This document shows positions 1 through 23,766 of a stretch of DNA of 64,000 nt, one piece after another. The notes beneath the pieces were generated by a model that was not told where the DNA came from, did not search any database, and saw nothing but the letters and a program-made list of their open reading frames with translations. The stretch spans positions 1 through 64,000 of the IMG/VR virus record IMGVR_UViG_3300045988_108506. The stretch is one strand, 5' to 3'. The stretch comes from a virus. Position numbers and translations under genes: made by a program. Numbering within the stretch: position 1 is the first letter of the stretch; the number at the start of each line of letters is the position of its first letter.

Positions 1-528
1 ATGTTTATGTGATGAGGGATATGAAAGATGTTTATGTGATGGGAGAGAGGGGGTACCTATCACGAACCTCCCGCCCCCGAAACGCGTTTTCTCCCCCACA
101 CCCCCTTCGCTGGAAAACCGGAAACGCGTTTTCACCTCAAACATATAAACTCGCTGATTATCAACAGTTTATTTAAATTATTGATAATCAATGTATTATT
201 ATAACATATTGATTATAAGCCACTTAAATAAACATATATCCTACATATTAATGTACGCGTATAATACCGCTCTCGTTCGTTTTATAAATTGCTGATAATC
301 AGATAATAGAATCGAAATTAATACAAGTTAACAAAAAAAATATAGTATATATATTTGTAATAACAATAAAAGTAGTATATTTGCAATGTGTTAAAGCGAT
401 AACACATGCTGACATGATGAACCTATATAGTGTATCCGTTGGATAACGCTATATCTGTATCTGTTAATAGCTTGCGTTGTGGGCTATTGAATTGAATATC
501 ACTTGTTTAACAAATAAATACATAATGT
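1..528. repeat. Non-coding repeat-rich leader: direct repeats ATGTTTATGTGATG (1-14, 28-42) and GAAACGCGTTTTC (79-91, 121-133), poly-C tracts, and four copies of the 9-bp site TGATAATCA/TGATTATCA (155-163, 182-190, 210-218, 292-300)
   Basis: Read directly. No ORF covers the region. The two 9-mer variants are reverse complements of each other. Confidence 0.6.
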
Positions 529-529
529 T

Positions 530-1069
530 ATGATTACTAAAAAAAATGTAAACAAACTACAGAATGCTGTTATCAAAGAAAATGCTGCAAATTTGGTAGG
601 TGCCGTAAAGTTATACAACGCTTTATTTGCTAATGGAGCTGATCTCAAGTCTATTTGCAAGGCCTTGGAAATACCGGCAGAATACGCCGTAAAGGTTGCA
701 GCCCTCGCCAAGGATAAAAAACGCCTGGTAGCTGTGTGTAGCCAAATGTTACCGAAAGTTGACGATACATTTGTTAAATTTGCTTTATACTCTAAAGTGT
801 ATAAGGATACCAATGCAGACAAAGAGAAAGGCGTTGAGGCTAAAACGGCTGATTGGTGCGCTGAGAATGTGGTTTACGGTAGCGAATATAAATCATTTGG
901 TTTTACTACTGCCGAATCATTGGAGACCAAAAAAAGCACTAAATGGTTGATAAAAGAAAATGGCGAGTATAAAGCTACTTATGTGGCTGTTAAGATCAAA
1001 TCTTATTCTATTCGCACTGTGGCAAAGTGTGTAAGTGAATACCTCGCACATGAAAGCAACCAGCAGTAA
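530..1069 (+). CDS. hypothetical protein (179 aa)
   Basis: Six-frame ORF. First gene after the non-coding leader. No recognisable motif. Confidence 0.55.
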   Translation: MITKKNVNKLQNAVIKENAANLVGAVKLYNALFANGADLKSICKALEIPAEYAVKVAALAKDKKRLVAVCSQMLPKVDDTFVKFALYSKVYKDTNADKEKGVEAKTADWCAENVVYGSEYKSFGFTTAESLETKKSTKWLIKENGEYKATYVAVKIKSYSIRTVAKCVSEYLAHESNQQ

Positions 1070-1559
1070 CAAGGCACGGAGAGCGCCGTTAAGCTCTCCA
1101 AAGGTTTGACGCGTACCGTTAAACGCGCTTGTACGCCGTTGTCAGTGGGTGCACGTCCCGCGTATGCTTTAGACTGAAGCTGACAAAACAGAGAGTTATT
1201 TTACATATTGGAGATAGATATACCTTTGCCCTTGCCGTTGGCAATTAAAGGGCTGGTATTACTGCATGTACTACATTGGATAAATGTAGTTATGTTAGGT
1301 ATGTTAGTACAGTTTGAAAAACATACCGTTGTACGCGGTTTATCTCCAGACCGAAATGTGCCTTACTTGCCTGCACGTAAAATAGGACAAGGCTGTAGAT
1401 TAAATTACAGGGTATAAACATGTAGCCTAACATGTAGGAACATGTTGTATCAAAACGCAAGGACACAATCGCCTTTATTTGTGGCTAAGTTGTGTAGCAG
1501 ACGGAAAATATAATAACAACATAGTACGGGCCTGTACACAAGGACTACGTACTAATTAC

Positions 1560-1630
1560 GGGCTGTTGGTTGTAGCATAAAATCTCTATAGGATAGGAAT
1601 GCGCGTCCGGTTCGATTCCGGAGCAACCTC
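1560..1630 (+). tRNA. tRNA-like element E1 (perfect T-arm TCCGG-TTCGATT-CCGGA); canonical cloverleaf not resolved
   Basis: GGTTCGATTCC T-loop hallmark. A 5' GGGCTGT segment can pair with 3' GCAACCT at 6 of 7 positions. D and anticodon arms could not be built by eye. Confidence 0.3.
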
Positions 1631-1653
1631 TAAATTATAAACAATATAATAGC

Positions 1654-1824
1654 ATGGAAAAGAAAGCAATGATCAACGCTTTAATTGAAGCGTTCAATAA
1701 ATCTAAAAACAGTTGCGTAAAAATAACATTGCGTAACTATATCGAGACGGTGAAAGCACTAAGCGAAAGTGAGTACAAAGAGGCGGAAGGTTTCTATATT
1801 GAAGCACTTAACCGCTGGGGTTAA
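1654..1824 (+). CDS. small hypothetical protein (56 aa), below the ORF-track size cutoff
   Basis: ATG at 1654 and TAA at 1822-1824. It starts about 20 nt after element E1, the same arrangement as the genes following E2 and E3. Confidence 0.4.
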   Translation: MEKKAMINALIEAFNKSKNSCVKITLRNYIETVKALSESEYKEAEGFYIEALNRWG

Positions 1825-1846
1825 TCATAATTAAAGCATAAAGAAA

Positions 1847-2053
1847 ATGGAAAGGAAATTTAAATCTCACATGGTAGACGTTCGCGGTCTGTCCAGGAAA
1901 GAAGCTAAAGAAAAGCGGAAAAGAGCGTATCGTGAATTTATGTTGTATCGTGATCTCAAAGAAGCGTATCATGCCGATACAGGAAAGGACAAATGCAAGC
2001 GTAAAGTTCATACATCACGAACATACGTCAAGGAAAACATAAACAGCATTTAA
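1847..2053 (+). CDS. small basic protein (68 aa, K/R-rich)
   Basis: Six-frame ORF, followed by an intrinsic terminator. Confidence 0.5.
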   Translation: MERKFKSHMVDVRGLSRKEAKEKRKRAYREFMLYRDLKEAYHADTGKDKCKRKVHTSRTYVKENINSI

Positions 2054-2060
2054 ATAGGAG

Positions 2061-2097
2061 TAGGGTTGTTCCGAACGTCGGAGCAGCCCTATTTTCG
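2061..2097 (+). terminator. rho-independent terminator (8-bp stem TAGGGTTG/CAGCCCTA followed by TTTTCG)
   Basis: Hairpin plus T-tract 8 nt after the stop codon of ORF 1847..2053. Confidence 0.5.
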
Positions 2098-2157
2098 TAT
2101 CCTACTCTTTCTATTTACGGGTAGGTATTCTGAGAGTGAACGGCGGATGTGTGCCAT

Positions 2158-2250
2158 ATTGGTCTAAAACGAAACTAAAATAGGATAGTTTGGATATAAT
2201 GCCGGTATTTTGTCTATATCATGTCGTTAAAATTGGTCTAAAACGAAACT
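2158..2250. repeat. 19-bp direct repeat ATTGGTCTAAAACGAAACT (2158-2176 and 2232-2250)
   Basis: Exact repeat read in the sequence, inside a gene-free region. Confidence 0.7.
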
Positions 2251-2251
2251 T

Positions 2252-2297
2252 GAGGCGGTTTTCTGACCCAAAATAGGGTGTCGGATGCCGCCTTTTT
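2252..2297 (+). terminator. terminator-like hairpin GAGGCGG...CCGCCT followed by TTTTT
   Basis: 7-bp GC stem with a long, partly paired loop, followed by a T5 tract. Confidence 0.4.
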
Positions 2298-2583
2298 CAT
2301 CTCTATAGATTGAAAATCAGGCTTATTGTATTTTTCTTAAAAACGAGGTATGCTTGATTATCAATTAGTTATGTTTTATAATACCCGTATTTTCGGACAT
2401 ACTTATTGTAAATTTTTTATTTTATGTGGTGGTTTTTATTAGTATCTGACCTGTATTTTTTATCGGTTGGAGTAAGGTCTATGTTAGAGTACGGACCAGA
2501 TCAGTATAATATCGTGATGGTTTTTTGCTTTTTGTTTCTGGCTTTGATTATAGGTCTGAATATCTATCTTGATAGGAGGAGCA

Positions 2584-2718
2584 GGCGGTAGGGCGTGGGC
2601 TGAAGTCTCTCTATTCTCTCTATGGAATGATATTATCTCCAAATCCTCCATATTCCATGCCAGAGTATAAGCTTGTAGCGCTCTCCGTATGCCGGTAGTG
2701 AGGCGGTAGGGCGTGGGT
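2584..2718. repeat. 16-bp GC-rich direct repeat GGCGGTAGGGCGTGGG (2584-2599, 2703-2718)
   Basis: Exact direct repeat immediately upstream of the tandem array. Confidence 0.6.
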
Positions 2719-2770
2719 TCTATGCGGAAAGCCGGAGGATTAGCGGGAGTTGGAGAGGGGGAGAGGGAGG

Positions 2771-3075
2771 GCACTCTCTTCCAACAAAATAGGGCACTCT
2801 CTTCCAACAAAATTAAGACTTACTTCCAACAAAATTAAGACTTACTTCCAACAAAATTAAGACTTACAGCGTTTTAAATCTGTAGGTTTTCCAACAAAAT
2901 TAAGACTCTCTTCCAACAAAATAGGGCACTCTCTTCCAACAAAATTAAGACTTACTTCCAACAAAATTAAGACTTACTTCCAACAAAATTAAGACTTACA
3001 GCGTTTCAAAATTAAGACATGCGTTTTAAAACAGTATAGGTTTTCCAACAAAATAAAGTATGATAGCGTTTTAAA
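2771..3075. repeat. Tandem iteron-like array: 10 copies of a 22-23 bp unit with core TTCCAACAAAAT (starts 2779, 2802, 2824, 2846, 2889, 2911, 2934, 2956, 2978, 3043), arranged as two ~130-bp super-repeats punctuated by AGCGTTTTAAA elements
   Basis: Read directly. Units abut with no unique spacers. Spacing is about two helical turns. Confidence 0.85.
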
Positions 3076-3488
3076 CCATCATTCCATAGGCTGGTAGTAA
3101 GTGAAATGTTTAACAATTAAAATATAAACAACATGAACGTATATGACTTTGCGCCTGACTTAGATTTGAGTAAGGAGGTAGTTGGGGTGAAAGGGATAGA
3201 AGGCAGTGATGGTATAGTATATGCTAAGGTAGTTAGCTGTGTAGACGTTAAGGATTAGAGTAGTGATGGTGTATTTTTTATGATTGTTATAAGGATAAAT
3301 GTTTATTATCGGGTAGTGATAGTTGTATAGATGGAGATTGGATTAGTAGGTACGAACAGGCTGCCATAGAGGGGGAGTAGGCGGCGCCTTGGGCTAAGGC
3401 CTGCGGTTGTAGGTGGAGCGTAGGCCAGGGCAGAGCCGGAACAGTTTATTGTGGAACGTGAAAAGAACAGATAAAAAAAGGAGGAGAT

Positions 3489-3569
3489 ATGAAAAAGATA
3501 TTTAAGACATTCTCTATTATGCTTGTCATAGAAATAGTGTTGATAGCTATTTTAGATGCTATGGCGTAA
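3489..3569 (+). CDS. micro-ORF, 26-aa hydrophobic peptide (MKKIFKTFSIMLVIEIVLIAILDAMA)
   Basis: AAAGGAGGAG Shine-Dalgarno 4 nt upstream of the ATG, which is unusual in this genome. Single predicted TM helix. Confidence 0.35.
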   Translation: MKKIFKTFSIMLVIEIVLIAILDAMA

Positions 3570-3627
3570 GTGAGGAAGATTTTCTTCATTAATTTTCTTA
3601 TGCTTTAGACAGAATGCTCCCGTCTGC

Positions 3628-3694
3628 GAAGATCGGAGTATTTGCTTTATGGGATTCATGGTGCAGTAGGTCGGTTCGATTCCGGCGATCTCAC
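3628..3694 (+). tRNA. tRNA-like element E2 (T-arm GTCGG-TTCGATT-CCGGC, then GATCTCA-C)
   Basis: Same T-arm and trailer as E3. A 5' GAAGATC segment pairs with the 3' GATCTCA at 5 of 7 positions. Not a canonical tRNA by eye. Confidence 0.3.
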
Positions 3695-3723
3695 ACAACA
3701 TTAAAAACAAAGGAGGAAAGAAA

Positions 3724-4065
3724 ATGAAAGATGGTATTACATTACATCCAGAACACGGATTGAATCCGTCTATAGAAGTCTGCATGATATGTGGCGAAGA
3801 GATGGGCATTGCTTTATTAGGAAATAATATCAAAGGTCAGGCGCCGCATCATATATGCACGGGCGGAGTATGTGACGATTGCAAAAAGATAATAGATGAT
3901 GGTGGTTGTTTTATTATCGAGGTTGAAGATGGATCAGATCAAAAGAATCCGTATCGTACAGGAAGATATTGTGCGATAAAGAAAGAGGCGGCAAAGAAGA
4001 TATTTGGACAGGAGCATAATATTGTGTACATGGAAAAGTCTGCATACAGTCAAATAATACCATAA
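3724..4065 (+). CDS. Cys-rich putative zinc-binding protein (113 aa)
   Basis: Six-frame ORF. CMICGEE and CDDCKK cysteine pairs. SD-like AAAGGAGGAAAG upstream. Confidence 0.6.
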   Translation: MKDGITLHPEHGLNPSIEVCMICGEEMGIALLGNNIKGQAPHHICTGGVCDDCKKIIDDGGCFIIEVEDGSDQKNPYRTGRYCAIKKEAAKKIFGQEHNIVYMEKSAYSQIIP

Positions 4066-4079
4066 AAATAAAGAAGGAT

Positions 4080-4394
4080 ATGTTTACAAAAGAAGAGCGA
4101 TTATTCATATGGAAAAAGGTATATGAGATGATTGATAGGTTAGAGGATGGGGAATACATATGTGTTGCGTTAAGAAATGTAGTGTTTATGTATTTCAAAA
4201 CACATAAAAATATCTATGAGTTTCGTTCAGACGAAATGGTGAGAATATATTTCCCGGAATTGGAGGAGAAGATAAGTATGGCCACAGAACCAGAGGAAAC
4301 AAGAACGTTTTATGGGTGGTTTGGTTGTCTTAGTCCAGAAACGAAGGAGGTAAGGCTGAATATTGTGAAAGATATTATAAAAGAATTAGAATAG
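4080..4394 (+). CDS. hypothetical protein (104 aa)
   Basis: Six-frame ORF. Confidence 0.55.
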   Translation: MFTKEERLFIWKKVYEMIDRLEDGEYICVALRNVVFMYFKTHKNIYEFRSDEMVRIYFPELEEKISMATEPEETRTFYGWFGCLSPETKEVRLNIVKDIIKELE

Positions 4395-4487
4395 TATTTT
4401 TGTTAATCTATTTTATTCATCAAATTAAGTTTTGGGTTTTGGCATGTCGGTTCGTGAGGATAGGCATGCCTATTTCTGCATCATAGA

Positions 4488-4548
4488 GGGGATGACGCGG
4501 CGTGCCGGTGCGTATGTGCCGGTCCTGGTTCGATTCTGGGCATCTCAC
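4488..4548 (+). tRNA. tRNA-like element E3 (T-arm CCTGG-TTCGATT-CTGGG, then CATCTCA-C)
   Basis: T-loop hallmark. A 5' GGGGATG segment pairs with the 3' CATCTCA at 6 of 7 positions. Preceded by a GGCATG...CATGCC hairpin. Not a canonical tRNA by eye. Confidence 0.3.
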
Positions 4549-4569
4549 AAACAATAAAACAAAAAAGTT

Positions 4570-4803
4570 ATGAGAATATATAAGAATGATATTATAAAGG
4601 CGTCAGCAATAAGCACCGGAGCCGACAGAGGCGTGTTGCTGTGTTCAATAACAGATTCAGGCTTTACGTCTATAGCGGGCGTAATATCGGCTGTTAAGGA
4701 TAGGTTACCAAACGAAGATCACAAGAAGATGGTTTTTGAAATCTTGAATGATACGAAAAAAGAGTACGGAAGATATAATAATTGCGGAACAAAAGTATTG
4801 TAA
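4570..4803 (+). CDS. hypothetical protein (77 aa)
   Basis: Six-frame ORF starting about 20 nt after E3. Confidence 0.5.
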   Translation: MRIYKNDIIKASAISTGADRGVLLCSITDSGFTSIAGVISAVKDRLPNEDHKKMVFEILNDTKKEYGRYNNCGTKVL

Positions 4804-4922
4804 TAAAGAGTAGAAAACAATATGTTTATGTAATATTAGTTTTTTCATTTTTATTGAAAGGAGCGCCGGCCTGTGAAGGTATGCGCTCTTTGTATTTGTA
4901 TAATGCATAAAACAATAATAAT

Positions 4923-5177
4923 ATGACAGAGAATAGTATAGACGTAAATATCGTACCTGTAAAGAATGGTATGAAACGTGTTGTGGTATCATATTACCAT
5001 TATTCACGCAAGGAGAAAGATCGCATGAGTTCCCAAACGGATTACGTTTGGGAAACAAAGAATGAAGAAATGTTTAAATACTTTGAGGCCAGGAGGACAA
5101 AAGTATTTTATAGTCAGATTCGTGCCATGTGTAGATTCTATGGCAAGAAAAATGTACGTAAATACAAAAAGTTATGA
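4923..5177 (+). CDS. hypothetical protein (84 aa)
   Basis: Six-frame ORF. Confidence 0.5.
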   Translation: MTENSIDVNIVPVKNGMKRVVVSYYHYSRKEKDRMSSQTDYVWETKNEEMFKYFEARRTKVFYSQIRAMCRFYGKKNVRKYKKL

Positions 5178-5983
5178 TATTAAAAACGACAACCAACGAG
5201 TTTTGTTTCATTAACGTAAGTTTCTACGAAACAATAGCAGATCCTCGTCATTTCTTTGAACAGGATTATGAAGAGATGCCAGAATATGAGGAGGAATCGG
5301 ATTTTGATTTTGATTCTTATTACAATAAGTTTATTCCTTTTGTACAGGAATGGGCGAATGAGGTAAGTGAACGCCTTTACGGATATGGCGTGAATAGTAT
5401 AAAGGTAACATCGGTCGGATATCCGAAAGAATATAATTATGGTACTGATTGGATGAACGTAGAGGTAGAGTTTTGTGATGAATGGAGGCAAAAGATGTTA
5501 TCTAACATTAGTAAGATTGTCAATGATGATAAATGCAAGAAGTATGCGGAGACTAATTACCGGTCGGTATCAGGATACATCTTTTTAGGGCCTGAAGATT
5601 TAAAGGAATTTGAAAAGGAAATAATAGAAAGAAAGTCGGATTCCGGATATGATGTAACAATATTATTAAATATGTATCTAACTTTGGCTTTTGTAAAAGA
5701 ATTTGGATTTAAAGCCGGAGAAGCATGGAGTGAAATAACAGAATATGCTTACGGATGTTTATCGTATTCCGATTTTGCAACAACAGAGATGCTTATACCG
5801 GGAGGTTCGGAGCATTTATTCAAAGACATTTACACGGCAAAGGCCGACGAATTATATCATCATGTCCTGGATAAATTCGGATGGGCGTGGCGTGATCCGA
5901 AATATAAGTCAGAAACAGAATTATGCGCGATGCTAAAGTGGGCAAAAGAAAAAGGCTTGACCATTGAAGAGTTAAGTATTTAA
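5174..5983 (+). CDS. hypothetical acidic protein (269 aa)
   Basis: Six-frame ORF. ATGA start/stop overlap with the upstream gene. Confidence 0.65.
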   Translation: MILKTTTNEFCFINVSFYETIADPRHFFEQDYEEMPEYEEESDFDFDSYYNKFIPFVQEWANEVSERLYGYGVNSIKVTSVGYPKEYNYGTDWMNVEVEFCDEWRQKMLSNISKIVNDDKCKKYAETNYRSVSGYIFLGPEDLKEFEKEIIERKSDSGYDVTILLNMYLTLAFVKEFGFKAGEAWSEITEYAYGCLSYSDFATTEMLIPGGSEHLFKDIYTAKADELYHHVLDKFGWAWRDPKYKSETELCAMLKWAKEKGLTIEELSI

Positions 5984-6010
5984 TTGTTAAACATAAGGCA
6001 GTAGTGGTGC

Positions 6011-6295
6011 GTGAGTATAGGTGCTGCCGTTAAAATATTTTATAAGATGAAAAAAGAAGAGATTCAAACTATTTTATACACAATCAAAGAAGGAGACAGT
6101 ATTAAAATCAAAGTACAAGACAAAAGTGAAGAGATAAGACTGCGGGATCATGTAAGAAGAGTACAGAAATACGGATACAGGTTTTGTTTGTCTCATTTAC
6201 ATGATGGAATTTTCTATCTGGAGAAGTTGAAAGAAGGGGATAAGGATAAATACTATAGAGTAATAAACAGAGGAAATGGAAAGACCGGAGTATAA
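6011..6295 (+). CDS. hypothetical protein (94 aa)
   Basis: Six-frame ORF. Confidence 0.5.
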   Translation: MSIGAAVKIFYKMKKEEIQTILYTIKEGDSIKIKVQDKSEEIRLRDHVRRVQKYGYRFCLSHLHDGIFYLEKLKEGDKDKYYRVINRGNGKTGV

Positions 6296-6569
6296 TAAGC
6301 TACGCAAAATGGCTAAGACTACTCCAGGTCTGATAGTGGACGAGGTGCAAAACATGATGCGTGTATCGCTATACGATAATGGGGAACTTAAGAAGGTGGT
6401 AGTAGTAATGAAATGCGATTCTTTTTTACAGTCAAAAAGTAACATAGAAAAGATAATGTTATTATCATCTTCTATAGAAGATCGAAAAAACAAAGAAAAA
6501 AATAAAACAAAATCAGAAAATGAACAGAATAACAAAAATAAGAGAAGAAATAGGAGGAAAACAGGTTGA
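6276..6569 (+). CDS. hypothetical protein with a K/N/R-rich basic tail (97 aa)
   Basis: Six-frame ORF. Confidence 0.45.
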   Translation: MERPEYNKLRKMAKTTPGLIVDEVQNMMRVSLYDNGELKKVVVVMKCDSFLQSKSNIEKIMLLSSSIEDRKNKEKNKTKSENEQNNKNKRRNRRKTG

Positions 6570-6903
6570 TTTGACCTTTTACGGGCGCTTTTGCAGCCTT
6601 ATCGAAGGTGATAGGAAGATAATACTAAGGGCAATAAAAAACGGTCGTAAAAAAGGCGTAATCGGGGCCATTCAGCCTGGGAGACATGACAGAATTTGGA
6701 CCACATGGTCTATTGCTTTTGATGATCTGAGGGTAGGGGATACGGTAGAGTTCAGTACATCTGGAAAATACAATCCCGGATTTCATGCTACGGAAAAGTA
6801 TGTAGGGTGTGTAGAATGGATAAAAGGGTCGGAATGTGCGATAAAAACCGGTAAGGGAATAGCAGTAGTATTAATTAAACACATAGAAAGGGTGGTAAAA
6901 TAA
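6520..6903 (+). CDS. hypothetical protein (127 aa)
   Basis: Six-frame ORF. Confidence 0.55.
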   Translation: MNRITKIREEIGGKQVDLTFYGRFCSLIEGDRKIILRAIKNGRKKGVIGAIQPGRHDRIWTTWSIAFDDLRVGDTVEFSTSGKYNPGFHATEKYVGCVEWIKGSECAIKTGKGIAVVLIKHIERVVK

Positions 6904-7184
6904 TGGGGTTGAGAGAATTTGTAGAACTTTTTGACAAGAATGAAGTAAAGAATTTGTTTAATGCATTGTCTTCATGTATAGAATACGTAAGGATAGATTT
7001 GCATGTATTTAATATAGGTGCCTATGTTACGTGCCTGTACAGTAATGATCTTGAATCGCTTTCACAGACAGAAGGTTGTAATGTGAATATGATAATAGAG
7101 GTACCACACTTATTCGAAGCATTCATGGAATACGCTTCACCGGAAATGAAGTTGTATTACGAAAAACTAACAGAGACAGTATAA
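6903..7184 (+). CDS. hypothetical protein (93 aa)
   Basis: Six-frame ORF. Confidence 0.5.
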   Translation: MGLREFVELFDKNEVKNLFNALSSCIEYVRIDLHVFNIGAYVTCLYSNDLESLSQTEGCNVNMIIEVPHLFEAFMEYASPEMKLYYEKLTETV

Positions 7185-7185
7185 T

Positions 7186-7659
7186 ATGAAAGAGGAAGTA
7201 GAACGGATAAAGAAGTTGGTTGGCATAGATCATAATAGATGGGAGCAGCCTTGTACATGTGATAAATGCAAGAACATGTGTGAGGTTCCTTGTATTGGTA
7301 CGCCAAAAGACATAGAAGCTATCATAGATGCCGGATACGCTGACAGGCTAAAAGAAACAATGTGGATGGTAGGGTATCTTGCAGTGAAAGAAAAACCAAT
7401 AGCGATGATCCAGCCAACAGTGAAAGACGGGTGGTGCGCATTCCGCCAGCCGGACGGTCTCTGCGAGCTGCATGACCGAGGACTAAAGCCGACCGAAGGA
7501 GTTCTGGCTTCTTGTAAGGTGGTTGAAGAAGACGATATTCCGACATACGAGACATCCGTACTTAGAGCAGTAGCTCATGAGTGGGTTAAGGTGGAGAACT
7601 TTGGAAATGTAATGAAGGTCGTTTTTAAATTTTTGCATGAAAATGAACGTAGAAAATGA
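7186..7659 (+). CDS. Cys-rich hypothetical protein (157 aa)
   Basis: Six-frame ORF. CTCDKCKNMCEVPC cysteine cluster. Confidence 0.55.
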   Translation: MKEEVERIKKLVGIDHNRWEQPCTCDKCKNMCEVPCIGTPKDIEAIIDAGYADRLKETMWMVGYLAVKEKPIAMIQPTVKDGWCAFRQPDGLCELHDRGLKPTEGVLASCKVVEEDDIPTYETSVLRAVAHEWVKVENFGNVMKVVFKFLHENERRK

Positions 7660-8047
7660 ATTAGATAAAGTAGTTAAGATCCTAAAAGAAAAAGGATTTG
7701 TGGTATATAGAAAGGGAGGAAAGGAACCGGGTGTATTTTACGCCAAAGAAGGTGATAAACGAATAGGATTCGTTTATCCCAACAACGGATATATATACGA
7801 CAAGATAAAAATGTGGTCTTTTTCAAGGGTGTATAAACCGCATAAGAAAACCGGGTCTTCGTGCTTAATGTGTGTCAGCGACGAATTTACGATAGAGAAT
7901 GCGATTAAGAGCATAGAGGATAGACTGTGGGTAAATGATATAAAAGACGGTAACAGAAAACGACCAGAAGAATATAAAAACATAAGAGAATTTGTTGGTA
8001 GCTTCACTAAATTCTACAACTCTGTAGAATTAGTTGAAGTTAAGTAG
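7637..8047 (+). CDS. hypothetical protein (136 aa)
   Basis: Six-frame ORF. Confidence 0.55.
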   Translation: MKMNVENELDKVVKILKEKGFVVYRKGGKEPGVFYAKEGDKRIGFVYPNNGYIYDKIKMWSFSRVYKPHKKTGSSCLMCVSDEFTIENAIKSIEDRLWVNDIKDGNRKRPEEYKNIREFVGSFTKFYNSVELVEVK

Positions 8048-19586: not shown

Positions 19587-20592
19587 TTTCAGAAGATACG
19601 AAAACGTACCCCGGTTTCAACTTGACCGCAGGCCCGGAAGGAGCCGACTGAAGCTAACCTGCCCAGCTTGCGGGAAAAGCCGGTGTCTCACCCCTTATAT
19701 TGATGTGGCAACAGGCCAGGTTGTTGGCAACGAGTTCGGAAGATGCGATCATGAACGGACTTGCGGTTACGATAAACGACCTACTGGTAAGGATGTAGGT
19801 GACAAAGATCTTTGGATCTCGGGAAACAAGTGTATAAGAGCTTATCGTCCTCCTGTAAATCCTGACGTTGTAAATTACATACCTTTTAGCGAGTTTGAGA
19901 GGACTGTAGTTCCAGACGATAGAAACACCGTATTTAGATTTTTATCGTCTCTATGGGGAAAAGAAAGGGTATCTGACGTATTTAGAAGGTATCATGTTGG
20001 AACAATGGACTTATGGGGATGGAAAGGGTGTTGTATATTCTGGCAGATAGATAAGGACTTTGTATGCAGAACCGGCAAGATTATGGATTTTTATATAAAG
20101 ACCGACAGCCAGGGGAATGAGATTGATGTAAAAAGAGTGAAGGAAAAAGACGGTGACAATGAGCGACCTCATGTCATGTTTTATCACTCGTTGCATGCAA
20201 GAGACTTCTTGTTTAGACAATGCCTGTTTGGAGAACATCTTCTAAGCCAGTATCCAGATAAGGTAGTTAATCTGGTGGAATCAGAAAAGACGGCTATTAT
20301 ATGCGCTGTGAATAAACCAGATGAGTTATTTGTAGCTACCGGTGGGTTGCAGAATCTAAGGCCGGAAGTGATAGATGTTTTAAAAGATAGAAAGACTGTA
20401 GCTTTTCCGGACAAAGGACAAGCATTTGAGACATGGAGTAAAAAGATAGATGGGATGATGATGAAGTCAAGGATAAAAGTATCAGACTATCTTCAAAATG
20501 TTGAAAATGTAGGAGACGGAGATGATGTGGCAGATTTGATAATTAGTAACAAGGTAAAAGAAAAACAGTATGAGCCTGGACGTTTATATTAA
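19579..20592 (+). CDS. putative DNA primase (N-terminal zinc ribbon plus Toprim-like acidic core)
   Basis: CPACG...CDHERTC zinc-binding motif. VNLVESEKTAIICAV...VAFPDKG...DGDD resembles the Toprim E...DxD arrangement. Lies next to the DnaB-like helicase. Confidence 0.4.
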   Translation: MLDFRRYENVPRFQLDRRPGRSRLKLTCPACGKSRCLTPYIDVATGQVVGNEFGRCDHERTCGYDKRPTGKDVGDKDLWISGNKCIRAYRPPVNPDVVNYIPFSEFERTVVPDDRNTVFRFLSSLWGKERVSDVFRRYHVGTMDLWGWKGCCIFWQIDKDFVCRTGKIMDFYIKTDSQGNEIDVKRVKEKDGDNERPHVMFYHSLHARDFLFRQCLFGEHLLSQYPDKVVNLVESEKTAIICAVNKPDELFVATGGLQNLRPEVIDVLKDRKTVAFPDKGQAFETWSKKIDGMMMKSRIKVSDYLQNVENVGDGDDVADLIISNKVKEKQYEPGRLY

Positions 20593-20923
20593 AAGTAAGA
20601 AGAAAGAAGAGGATCGTGAATGGGTTGCAAACATCACCCACAACATGAACAAGATGGCACAAAGAATATTCGTATCAGAAAATAAAGAAACGCTGTACGA
20701 TTATGTTTGGAGACCAGAAGAATTGGGTAGGGAAATAGATACCGATGAGATGAAGAATGTACTTACAAAAGGTATATGTATTATGATCTCCAAAAGAAAA
20801 AGTCTTTTGAAATACGAGCCAGAAAATGGATGGGGGTCTTATGATTCATTTCTTAAGTTTCTTATCGAATACAAAGAGGCGTGTGAAGATCATCCTGGTT
20901 ATATAATTGAAGCAAGCAGATAA
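20570..20923 (+). CDS. hypothetical protein (117 aa)
   Basis: Six-frame ORF. Confidence 0.5.
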   Translation: MSLDVYIKSKKKEEDREWVANITHNMNKMAQRIFVSENKETLYDYVWRPEELGREIDTDEMKNVLTKGICIMISKRKSLLKYEPENGWGSYDSFLKFLIEYKEACEDHPGYIIEASR

Positions 20924-21182
20924 TATGGAAAATTACAAAAACACTTTAAATGAGGTAGTGGTGATCGAATCGTCACCAGAAACGTATTTTGTTTACGCTA
21001 TTCGTAATGCTATTCGTATCTCTAAATGTGCGTATCCGACAGCCAAGAAAGTAATTTTCAAAAGAGAGGATGTAGAGGTAGAGATTTCGGAAATGGAAAC
21101 TGAAAACAGTTTGTATGAAAAGTTTAAAGAAAAACAAAAGAATAGGGTATGGAACTTAATGAGCGCCAACAACGGGTTTTAA
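20907..21182 (+). CDS. hypothetical protein (91 aa)
   Basis: Six-frame ORF. Confidence 0.45.
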   Translation: MKQADNMENYKNTLNEVVVIESSPETYFVYAIRNAIRISKCAYPTAKKVIFKREDVEVEISEMETENSLYEKFKEKQKNRVWNLMSANNGF

Positions 21183-21715
21183 GAGGCGAAATTTGTCCTT
21201 ATTGCGGAAGAGAAACCGAGTTGATCAATGCCGATAAAGTATATAACAGAAAAGGCTTAGGGATGGTTATGATGTGCAAACCATGCAACGCTTATGTCGG
21301 TGTTCATGAATCAGGGCCGAATAAGGGAAAAGCTAAAGGCCGGCTTGCAGGGCCATCACTGAGATCTCTTAAGATAAGAGTCCATGCCGAACTTGACAGA
21401 CTATGGTCTACGCCGGAGGAACGGGAAAGGATGTATAAAGATTTATCTGAATTTCTCGCTATACCGGAAGAGTACACACATATAGGTATGTTTGGCGAGA
21501 AGACGATGGGAAAAGTCTTTCAGTTCTGTCATGTAAACAAAGAACGATCAGGTTCGAGAATAGAATGGCATAAGCCTGGAGATAAGTGCCCTAATAAAAA
21601 CAATCAAATAGTGTCAGGCAGTAGCGCATGCAGAGGATGTCCTGAGTATCTTCATGATGAGAAAGACGGGTATGTCTGGTGTGATCCTGATATGAGCTAC
21701 GGCAGGTTGAAATAG
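21149..21715 (+). CDS. zinc-finger domain protein (188 aa; CPYCG...CKPCNAYVG)
   Basis: Two CxxC pairs at the N-terminus plus CRGC near the C-terminus. Confidence 0.55.
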   Translation: MELNERQQRVLRGEICPYCGRETELINADKVYNRKGLGMVMMCKPCNAYVGVHESGPNKGKAKGRLAGPSLRSLKIRVHAELDRLWSTPEERERMYKDLSEFLAIPEEYTHIGMFGEKTMGKVFQFCHVNKERSGSRIEWHKPGDKCPNKNNQIVSGSSACRGCPEYLHDEKDGYVWCDPDMSYGRLK

Positions 21716-21723
21716 GGCGCGAA

Positions 21724-22047
21724 TTGCCTATCTTTGTGCTATTATCAATCAAAAAAAAATGTAAGAAGATGGGCAGATCAACAGAGTACTACAGGACTCA
21801 TCCCGAAGCCAGGAAGAAAAAGGCTAAAAAGGACAAGGAAATAAATGCCAGACCGGAACAGAAAGCAAAACGCCGGGAACTTGGTCGTAAAAACTACGAA
21901 ACGGACAAGAAAAAGGGCAAGGGCTGGAGGAAAGGCAAGGATTGTTCTCATACCAAGAACGGTCTTAGGTATAAATCAGTAAAAGCTAATAGGGGATCCA
22001 AATCGGATACAAAAGGTGACAAAAATGCAAGAGGATCTGAAAAATAA
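21724..22047 (+). CDS. highly basic lysine-rich protein (107 aa), possibly a histone-like DNA binder
   Basis: More than 35% K/R residues, e.g. KKKAKKDKE...KKKGKGWRKGKD. Confidence 0.5.
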   Translation: MPIFVLLSIKKKCKKMGRSTEYYRTHPEARKKKAKKDKEINARPEQKAKRRELGRKNYETDKKKGKGWRKGKDCSHTKNGLRYKSVKANRGSKSDTKGDKNARGSEK

Positions 22048-23149
22048 AATAGATATAAGAAGGATATTCAAGACCTCTAAACAGGTCATGGAAGAGGCGT
22101 ATGAGAATATCTTGAAATACAGGCGGGGAGAGCTTATCCCCGCTAAAACCGGATACGATTATATTGATGAGGCTTTGCTTGGAGGTATTTTCCCTCAGCA
22201 TGCTATTGCCATAGGAGCCCGGCCATCTGTAGGTAAATCGTATGTGGCCCAAAAGATATTGGAAAATGTGATGAATCCGATGATCAACCCACAAGCAGAA
22301 GATTATTTTCTTGTCAATTGCGAGTTCGAAATGAATCCTCAAGATCTTCTTCTTCGCAGAATGAGTCAGGATATGAAAAAACGGGCTCCTGAAATATTAA
22401 GAAGGCAAGATTCTAATACAGTAGAAGAGATGAGGATGTTTGAAATCCTTCAAGGTGAAATCAGAAATAATATAATATACATCGACGCTCCGTGTACGGT
22501 AAAAGAGTTTGAGGCGGCTGTATATCATATAGCTACTAAGCACAAAGACAAACGTCTTATAATATTTAAAGTCGATCATATTGCTTTGATAAAAAGAATG
22601 GGATTGGATCCTAAGTCGGCTATAGATGATTTGGTGGCGGTTATGAACGAAGCTAAATTAGTATATAAAAACATATTTTTCCTCATCATATCCCAATTCA
22701 ACAGAGAGATAGAAGGAAGGATAAAAAGCCCACAAGAGCAACCTCCGCGTCTTTCTGATTTTTACCAATCTGATACGCTGGGTCAGTTATGTACGTTAAT
22801 GATAGGTTTGCACAATCCTCGTAGGTACGGGCTGGATAAGTATATGATATTTGGGAAAGATTGGTATCAGACTCTTGATAGGTTTAAAACTGAAAACAAA
22901 ACATCATTCAGGACAGCCGGACTTGTGTTTCATCATATACTGAAGGTAAGGCAAGTTAGTATGGAAGAGCTTACTAATACAATCCACCCAGAGATACTGC
23001 CGGGATATGGATGGATGTACGGGGAGGGCGGGACGAAGTTCGTGAACCCCAACCAGCCGCCGACGCCGCCCAAGCTCTATACTGTGGAAGACGTTACGGA
23101 CAATCAGGAACAAGAACAAGAGACAAAAGAAGAACAGTCATTGTATTAA
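22016..23149 (+). CDS. dnaB: DnaB-family replicative helicase (RecA-like C-terminal domain only)
   Basis: TGYDYIDEALLGGIFPQHAIAIGARPSVGKS matches the DnaB TGfxdLD...GGL...iiaARPsMGKT (Walker A) block. The N-terminal primase-interaction domain is absent. Confidence 0.7.
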   Translation: MTKMQEDLKNKIDIRRIFKTSKQVMEEAYENILKYRRGELIPAKTGYDYIDEALLGGIFPQHAIAIGARPSVGKSYVAQKILENVMNPMINPQAEDYFLVNCEFEMNPQDLLLRRMSQDMKKRAPEILRRQDSNTVEEMRMFEILQGEIRNNIIYIDAPCTVKEFEAAVYHIATKHKDKRLIIFKVDHIALIKRMGLDPKSAIDDLVAVMNEAKLVYKNIFFLIISQFNREIEGRIKSPQEQPPRLSDFYQSDTLGQLCTLMIGLHNPRRYGLDKYMIFGKDWYQTLDRFKTENKTSFRTAGLVFHHILKVRQVSMEELTNTIHPEILPGYGWMYGEGGTKFVNPNQPPTPPKLYTVEDVTDNQEQEQETKEEQSLY

Positions 23150-23163
23150 AAAAAATAAGAACC

Positions 23164-23766
23164 ATGAGACTGACAGTAGAAGAAAACGAATACCTGATAA
23201 GTAAGTTCCTTTTGGTTCTTACTGAGTTTGCAGGAGATGAAAGAGAGATGTTTTTAATCAACTCCATACATGATAAGGCGGTGGCGGATATGAATTATCG
23301 TCTTCCGTCTTTAATAAGCAGAGAACGTAAAAGACGAGTCATTGAGCTCCTTAAAGAAGGAACCAGAATAATCAAGGACTTTTCCGGATATGCAGGTGAT
23401 ATGGGTATGATTAACGAATACGATCGTTTAAAGAAAGAAATAGGAACCGTCCAAGACCAGCTTGGTGACGTAGAAGGTCAACTTCGGGCAGCAGGAGAAG
23501 TTATTAAAAAAGAACTTGATATGATTGCTGACCGAATCAAAGAAGACCTCCTCGACCGAGAACTGGCTAAAAGTAATGCCGAGGCCGAAAGAAAAGCCAA
23601 AGTAGATCCGAGATACGAAGTAGCTTTAGGTGATTACAAGGAGATGCTGGAAGTGATTTTTACAACCAGAAACAAGTATTCTACGGTAGATTCTGTACAT
23701 GACGATCTTCGACAGTCGGTATCTACCGGTAGAAATTCGATTATTAAAGAAGGGTACAACAGTTAA
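23164..23766 (+). CDS. hypothetical coiled-coil protein (200 aa; start trimmed from the track ORF 23011)
   Basis: The track ORF overlaps the helicase gene by 138 nt. The in-frame Met at 23164 follows the helicase stop. Confidence 0.5.
   Translation: MRLTVEENEYLISKFLLVLTEFAGDEREMFLINSIHDKAVADMNYRLPSLISRERKRRVIELLKEGTRIIKDFSGYAGDMGMINEYDRLKKEIGTVQDQLGDVEGQLRAAGEVIKKELDMIADRIKEDLLDRELAKSNAEAERKAKVDPRYEVALGDYKEMLEVIFTTRNKYSTVDSVHDDLRQSVSTGRNSIIKEGYNS

Follow-up and report, generated by a model that had tools for sequence, protein, structure and literature searches.

What is the function of a dense tandem array that lies a few hundred base pairs inside the end of a gut phage genome? The human gut contains abundant, uncultured epsilon crAss-like phages, and no cis-acting site, whether an origin, a packaging signal or an early control region, has been defined in them. 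The array examined here lies in a stretch of 64,000 nucleotides (positions 1 to 64,000 of IMG/VR record IMGVR_UViG_3300045988_108506), referred to throughout as the window. A first-pass annotation of the window, made from its letters only, had described the array as iteron-like and offered a replication origin, a partition site or a master-regulator operator as candidates. In this study, we report the characterisation of the array in the window and in its relatives, and tentatively favour the reading that it is a multivalent binding site for protein on DNA, close to the genome end, and that it may control early rightward expression.

The window was assigned to an epsilon crAss-like phage, as its bases 2135-8000 are 93.5% identical to crAssE-Sib (OR575929). 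The latter is an epsilon crAss-like phage of 151,256 bp from the human gut (PMC11054128). Genes of the window are encoded on the + strand from before the window start to about 35 kb, and are followed by structural genes on the minus strand. In the complete crAssE-Sib genome the array divides the co-oriented gene block in two, and it is therefore not situated at a strand switch. The upstream part of the block is devoted to nucleotide metabolism and replication accessory functions (helicase, thymidylate synthase, RuvC, clamp, SSB, dUTPase, tRNAs and polynucleotide kinase), and the downstream part, of about 40 kb, opens with many small unknown genes and continues with a replication factor, a primase and a DnaB-like helicase.

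The start of the crAssE-Sib record was set by its authors using PhageTerm (P = 1.5e-22) on virus-particle DNA (PMC11054128). This terminus comes from one published PhageTerm run, and neither the packaging class nor a second terminus is given in the passages that describe it (PMC11054128). The end and the start of the record align to window positions 2135-2194 and 2055-2134, respectively, which places the mapped end between 2134 and 2135. The array begins 636 bp to the right of that end, from which the block of small genes is transcribed inward. The array is the strongest tandem repeat both in the window and in the complete crAssE-Sib genome, and it adjoins the only genome end that has been mapped. 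It is not mentioned in those passages of the crAssE-Sib paper that deal with repeats, the origin, or non-coding and intergenic sequence (PMC11054128), and literature searches found nothing on such repeats, or on iterons, in crAss-like phages. The array is an undescribed member of a familiar class of cis-acting elements, the tandem repeats located close to the origins or ends of phage genomes. The features of the region are as follows.

2134..2135, no strand: junction between the end and the start of the crAssE-Sib GenBank record
2158-2176 and 2232-2250, + strand: ATTGGTCTAAAACGAAACT in two identical copies, +23 and +97 relative to the mapped end
2424..2591, + strand: small gene for a hydrophobic 55-aa product, with a coding signature, annotated in crAssE-Sib as WOZ57411.1
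2592..2778, no strand: conserved non-coding leader of the array, about 92-95% identical among relatives
2779..2888, + strand: array block 1, units 1-4 (23, 22, 22 and 43 bp)
2889..3042, + strand: array block 2, units 5-9 (22, 23, 22, 22 and 65 bp)
3043..3092, + strand: unit 10 (about 50 bp), the last and degenerate unit, nearest the gene
3133..3380, + strand: decayed 86-aa gene, the first of the downstream small-gene block

The ten copies reported by the first-pass annotation were recovered as ten exact TTCCAACAAAAT cores, all on the + strand and all inside 2779-3054 (starts at 2779, 2802, 2824, 2846, 2889, 2911, 2934, 2956, 2978 and 3043). These are the only such cores in the 64-kb window; at up to one mismatch, 0.96 would be expected, and the maximum in 100 shuffles was 3. 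TRF reported a 22-bp period with 10.0 copies and a 132-bp period with 1.9 copies (91% match), with scores of 240-435 for the array versus 73 for the next-best tandem repeat in the window. The finer details of the annotation were also confirmed. The duplicated super-repeat corresponds to a 106-nt segment (2773-2878) which recurs 132 bp further on (2905-3010) with 99% identity. Of the two unit tails described, ATAGGGCACTCTC is carried by units 1 and 6 and TAAGACTTAC by units 2-4 and 7-9, unit 5 being a hybrid, and the punctuating AGCGTTTTAAA-like elements are found at 2868, 3000, 3020 and 3065.

The copy number in the window has to be read together with the behaviour of assemblies at this locus. 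An older HMP assembly of the same strain, whose flanks are 100% identical to the window (L189, SRS024132_Baylor_scaffold_2126), contains runs of N at its positions 2202-2222 and 2262-2283. These replace window 2793-2874 and 2914-3006 and coincide exactly with the stretches of 22-bp units. Other short-read assemblies are likewise gapped or broken at the array. At the level of assembled sequence, the layout in two blocks is independently confirmed; the number of 22-bp units is without independent confirmation, because L189 and the other assemblies are gapped there. Contigs often begin in the array, and those of L033/L085 and L044/L100 also end there with overlapping sequence, while other complete contigs are linearised at scattered positions. 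A physical terminus as the cause of this pile-up was rejected on account of the overlapping ends of the same contig and the scattered linearisation elsewhere. The clustering of contig ends therefore reflects repeat-induced breakage of circular assemblies and gives no evidence of physical ends; it is at the array that short-read assemblies of these phages fragment or are left with gaps.

Relatives were gathered using an exact 18-mer of the unit (65 viral contigs), the upstream flank (45 contigs) and the downstream small gene (180 loci, of which 80 were kept), and an exact-protein look-up supplied ten further assemblies. Scoring was performed on 81 distinct N-free versions of the interval, representing 117 loci. 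Comparison of these sequences indicates that the ancestral, clade-wide unit is 50-51 bp long and bipartite, usually in 2-4 copies. It consists of box 1, TTCCAACAAAATT, and box 2, GYTTTAAAACAGCAT..TGTAG, and the consensus of 46 distinct 51-bp units was TTCCAACAAAATT[A/C]A[G/A]nAnnnCAGnG[T/C]TTTAAAACAGCATnnTGTAGnnTn. Among these 46 units, positions 7-9, 13, 15, 22-23, 28-37, 39 and 43-46 are invariant or nearly so and positions 14, 16-21, 25, 27, 41-42 and 48-49 vary freely, so that two invariant blocks are separated by freely variable positions. Conservation of the unit in related genomes had been proposed as a check on the annotation, and the array was found at the same spot in all 81 distinct intervals, each with at least one box 1 (range 1-11, mode 3) and at least one box 2 (range 1-9, mode 2). 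Spacings between successive boxes 1 fell into two classes, 50-52 bp (128 cases) and 19-24 bp (97 cases), or about five and two helical turns. The closest relative, crAssE-Sib, has just three 51-bp units, which are the only sites of the composite box 2 in its 151-kb genome, and the array of L031 is reduced to a single unit. The orientation of the array is fixed among relatives, and its last unit is always located some 60-110 bp ahead of the ATG with which the first downstream gene starts.

Short units are found in many lineages and combine box 1 with a CTCTC/CTCCC junction that was copied from the border upstream. Runs of 21-23-bp units with box 1 only are present also in L107, L144, L033 and L195, and in L199 the box-1-only units have diverged from one another (CAACAAAAT, CAATAAAAT and CAATAAAGT). 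Since such runs arose repeatedly, and have diverged within one lineage, they are tolerated or favoured and not only transient. At least two successive short spacings were counted in 22 of the 81 arrays. The window is the extreme case, with ten copies of box 1 and one intact box 2, TTTAAAACAG at 3026-3035 in block 2; unit 4 retains a shortened box-2 half, AGCGTTTTAAATCTGTAGGTT. Unit 10 is found in every member of the sub-lineage (L066, L034, L013, L058, L011 and the window), and the nested duplications of the window (23 bp, 22 bp x 3, then 132 bp) were matched in no relative examined. On this comparison, the 22-bp runs and the 132-bp super-repeat are to be regarded as derived expansions and not as the ancestral form.

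Outside the clade, the early region of phi14:2, a distant cultured relative, contained no comparable array, and none was found in the two-thirds of the phi17:2 genome that were scanned, phi17:2 being another distant cultured relative. A search of 185,579 bacterial species genomes returned only one mis-binned phage fragment and one chance match, and a prophage or plasmid copy in bacteria was rejected on that result. The motif is confined to this phage clade.

Such variability raises the question of whether the array has any function. It could be a harmless, slippage-prone minisatellite, in which the conservation of the boxes would reflect common descent and gene conversion, a reading that we consider improbable. 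The copy number and arrangement are indeed extremely variable: copy number differs among intervals whose flanks are more than 90% identical, as in a minisatellite or VNTR, and the array is of practical use as a variable-number marker at strain level. It is also the least conserved part of the region (70-80% identity versus 92-99% around it), the arrangement in the window is without a match among relatives and partly N in another assembly, and phi17:2 lacks an array over the portion scanned. Against a functionless repeat, the array has never been lost in the 81 intervals, and its non-coding flanks are conserved to the same degree as genes. Moreover, differing unit types coexist within one array, with the same boxes and different spacers, a pattern which homogenisation alone would not produce and which therefore argues for constraint.

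The array had been placed in a 1.4-kb gene-free region, far from any ORF, and this description did not survive inspection of the flanks. Two genes lie inside that region, a real one at 2424-2591 and a decayed one at 3133-3380; the former ends 180 bp upstream of the array, and the latter starts 58 bp past its reported end. Across 58 distinct variants, the 2424-2591 frame is free of internal stops, and its variable columns are distributed 14/9/31 by codon position. The 86-aa ORF, whose product is acidic, has hundreds of homologue clusters and is uninterrupted in about 180 relatives. In the window it is a pseudogene, with one TAC>TAG change, deletions of 1 nt and of 12 nt, and Cys>Ser changes at two codons. 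A GC-rich stretch (3351-3450, about 61% GC) spans the end of this ORF, and its 3351-3400 portion, with 99.5% identity among about 160 relatives, is more conserved than the ORF itself.

Only 2592-3132 is truly non-coding. In the leader, the variable columns are flat by codon position (15/13/16), and a 17-mer, AGGCGGTAGGGCGTGGG, occurs twice (2583-2599 and 2701-2717, 118 bp apart). In some relatives the second copy is swapped for CCGAGAGCGCAGG, whose complement, GCGCTCTC, lies about 30 nt further upstream. The leader also contains a CT-rich tract (2606-2622) and, adjoining the array, a conserved homopurine G-rich tract with four runs of three or more G (2745-2771). The latter is quadruplex- or triplex-prone, and pairs in the predicted fold with the CT-rich tract 130 bp upstream. 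As 51 and 21 are multiples of three, a repeat-containing protein was also considered. This was rejected because the ORF from the conserved ATG at 2722 yields products of anywhere between 1 and 132 aa, the + strand product often ending after 13-23 aa. On the minus strand, ORF 2484-2810 is interrupted in 13 of the 16 relatives compared.

Searches at the RNA level gave negative results. ARAGORN returned no tRNA or tmRNA match, with only junk on relaxed settings, and no Rfam family reached its gathering score across the window, matches in 1-5000 being at chance level (E >= 0.2). Compared with shuffles, the folds of the array and leader gave z-scores of +1.5, -0.9, -0.6 and 0.06, none of them significant. 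A candidate stem within the unit (18-24/42-48), considered as an RNA or DNA hairpin, holds in one unit type only and was rejected. As a separate observation, tRNA-T-arm-like 14-mers, CGGTTCGATTCCGG, each following TATGCTTTAGACWGAA, are present at 1163-1178 with 1608-1621 (about 445 nt) and at 3599-3614 with 3672-3685 (about 73 nt); these elements gave no tRNA, tmRNA or Rfam call even at relaxed thresholds.

An RNA-level role would have the array transcribed within an abundant early non-coding RNA, whose repeated box 1 motifs, CA-rich and unstructured, would serve an RNA-binding factor as sponge or decoy; we hold this to be quite unlikely. A variable number of motifs is typical of sponge RNAs, which would suit this role. 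As such a role would have it, almost no structure is predicted for the 305-nt array RNA (-28 kcal/mol), although the corresponding z of +1.5 is not significant. In phi14:2, gene-free regions heading the early genes give rise to a very abundant early ncRNA of unexplained function (bioRxiv 10.1101/2020.03.07.982082), and this phage has a gene-free stretch of 1.7 kb in the corresponding place. The two phages thus resemble each other in the long stretch of low coding density that heads the early genes. They differ in that phi14:2 has nothing comparable to the array, its only repeat there being of 15 bp x 2.5 and without sequence similarity. In addition, no promoter or terminator brackets the array, and the conservation of box 2 and the helical-turn spacing are easier to explain for DNA. 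A more specific version by analogy, in which the 1-11 box 1 motifs of an early ncRNA titrate a host RNA-binding factor or the Bacteroidota machinery for Shine-Dalgarno-independent initiation, is more improbable still; if it were true, changes in copy number through slippage would tune the dose from strain to strain.

Iteron arrays are known from phage and plasmid origins, including lambda ori, P1 oriR/incA, R6K and RK2. Like those arrays, the repeats are direct, share one orientation, are non-coding and restricted to a single site, and are phased at whole turns in the window (22-23 bp x 7, plus longer units). The classic iteron architecture claimed by the first-pass annotation is nevertheless not supported, as the 22-bp form is derived, and the ancestral unit of 50-51 bp, with its two boxes, differs from one of 17-22 bp. 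An origin of this type, at which a phage initiator would bind the boxes, melt an AT-rich stretch and load the phage DnaB-like helicase together with the host replisome, seems doubtful to us. In its favour, unique phased direct repeats lie in non-coding DNA with AT-rich stretches near by (25-28% GC at 2301-2450, about 320 bp upstream, and 27% GC at 3051-3150, just downstream). The G-rich, R-loop- or quadruplex-prone tract adjoins the array, and epsilon crAss-like phages are without a DNA polymerase and have a minimal replication set. The candidate origin nevertheless has neither an initiator gene nor a cluster of DnaA boxes nearby. No initiator gene adjoins or overlaps the array; the flanking 55-aa and 86-aa ORFs gave no Rep-like Pfam or PHROG match, and the genes for replication lie either about 15 kb downstream of it or upstream by more than 8 kb. 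DnaA boxes are absent from the region, the nearest one-mismatch sites being at 1480 and 6074. The range of copy number, from 1 to 11 among near-identical genomes, is a further point of difference from iteron origins.

Nucleotide skew, which had been proposed as a check for an origin, gave no turn at the array. The cumulative GC skew of crAssE-Sib turns only at the strand switches, at 18 kb (minimum) and 111 kb (maximum), the cumulative AT skew does not turn at the array either, and the skew within the window is positive from 1 to about 35 kb. In a regression with gene strand as covariate, the replication-like term was 0.016-0.025, versus 0.20 for strand. The best strand-corrected position of an origin was a broad plateau, flat over 0-18 kb of the crAssE-Sib record and not pointing to the array; on the other side, an origin at the junction fitted nearly as well as the best (RSS 2.585 vs 2.573, baseline 2.653). 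In view of the plateau and of turns that coincide with strand switches, skew neither places an origin at the array nor excludes one.

Centromere repeats offer another parallel. Those of F sopC (12 x 43 bp), R1 parC and pBtoxis tubC are variable in copy number and largely dispensable. The array resembles them as a series of tandem direct repeats of tens of bp. A partition site of this kind, as in F sopC or R1 parC, would serve a plasmid-like carrier state, and we rate it as highly improbable. That one unit can suffice, as in L031, would agree with it. The prototypic crAssphage has been suggested to live as a phage-plasmid, and the crAssE-Sib authors speculate on plasmid-like persistence (PMC11054128). 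The comparison fails at the partition genes that the first-pass suggestion would call for: no partition NTPase or adaptor gene was found near the array, and no ParA, ParM, TubZ, ParB/ParR-like or centromere-binding protein is present in the flanking genes or among the annotated ATPases. The search of bacterial genomes described above also counts against a carrier state.

The proximity of the mapped end brings packaging into consideration. Known terminase recognition sites include the lambda cosB R sites, SPP1 pacL/pacR and the P1 pac hexamers, and short repeats flank the terminal repeats of T7. The array could likewise comprise sites for the terminase small subunit or for end processing, marking where the cutting of concatemers starts, which we consider unlikely. 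Like those sites, it is a set of short repeats near the packaging cut and unique in the genome. It lies 636 bp from the PhageTerm start, which in crAssE-Sib is flanked by the two strongest tandem repeats of the genome (150461-150614 and 2066-2176), and both short terminal repeats and pac headful packaging are known among cultured crAss-like phages. Unlike those sites, it is separated from the mapped cut by 0.64 kb and from the terminase genes by about 20 kb, and its repeats are candidate sites only. The putative small and large terminase genes are located at crAssE-Sib 20105-23219, some 20-23 kb off, so the adjacency to the small terminase gene that is usual for pac and cos sites is lacking. 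The ATTGGTCTAAAACGAAACT copies at 2158 and 2232, which are followed by a terminator-like hairpin at 2275-2294, are much nearer to the cut, and the clustering of contig ends in the array comes from assembly breakage.

Another tandem array, whose unit measures 27-31 bp (TTTATGTGATGAGAGAGA..), is present at window 1-140, where it is cut by the window start, and at crAssE-Sib 2066-2176. A 19-mer with the palindrome AAACGCGTTT comes after it in two copies (76-94 and 118-136). L189 starts at window position 27, within this repeat. In several relatives, long contigs terminate close to the repeat, so this array breaks assemblies too.

A cis-acting protein-binding site on DNA fits the observations best, because the array is unique, its repeats are spaced by whole turns, its boxes are conserved, coding and fold signals are lacking, its orientation is fixed and its 3' end is anchored. 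The annotation had also suggested a multimeric binding site, and the presence of the boxes in every relative examined would suit one. From these features we infer protein binding and a regulatory role. In the mechanism that we propose, the array of the window is a local, over-expanded form of a clade-wide non-coding minisatellite. Each unit of 50-51 bp, about five helical turns, would dock a cooperative, sequence-specific protein of phage or host on double-stranded DNA by means of its two boxes. Lying 0.6-0.9 kb inside the packaged end and upstream of the first small early-type gene, the array could then exert operator- or enhancer-like control. The number of sites would shift rapidly through replication slippage or unequal recombination at the short CTC/TTCC homologies of the junctions. 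The same processes may repeatedly yield box-1-only runs at two-turn spacing, of which the window would be the extreme.

Early rightward control was ranked first among the possible roles because the position inside the mapped end and the small acidic first product recall, by analogy, a T7-type left end. The latter comprises a terminal repeat, the SRL short repeat array, promoters A1-A3 about 0.5-0.75 kb in, and the acidic gene 0.3. Similarly, the array lies 0.64-0.94 kb inside the mapped end, before a small acidic first gene and a block that reads inward. It differs from the T7 end in showing no recognisable promoter consensus, and in a spacing, 22 or 51 bp, that is too tight for independent promoters. 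The ranking is weak, since no promoter consensus was found, the motif is not reused and no binding protein was identified. Between 1228 and 3161, no Bacteroidetes TAnnTTTG box was found on the + strand, and there was no sigma-70-like site in the array. The opposite strand carries eight TAnnTTTG matches, which are absent from the TTCAA unit variants and have no -33 partner (TTTG) at the usual spacing. An array of host-type promoters was rejected for want of a + strand consensus. A common motif is likewise lacking in the early promoters of the crAss-like phage phi14:2 (bioRxiv 10.1101/2020.03.07.982082).

That the motif is not reused upstream of other genes is unusual for the operator of a regulator, and counts against an operator. 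No candidate for the binding protein emerged from the flanking ORFs, which gave no informative Pfam or PHROG match. The 86-aa neighbour is an unlikely binding factor, being strongly acidic, with cysteines that are not all conserved, and a pseudogene here. In favour of regulation, a second region upstream of an operon in the same genome has a comparable order of elements, opening with a tandem repeat, after which come palindromes and -7 boxes of the host type. With its unique motif, its conserved boxes and the only mapped end next to it, the array is where experiments on replication, packaging or early expression should obviously begin.

In the window, the half-sites TGATTATCAA and TTGATAATCA form several inverted repeats at 155-302, and occur again at 2354-2371. 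They adjoin two Bacteroidetes-type -7 boxes on the + strand (TATATTTG at 350 and 376), upstream of a 179-aa ORF at 530-1069. The region 155-302, with its TATATTTG boxes, looks like an operator-promoter region.
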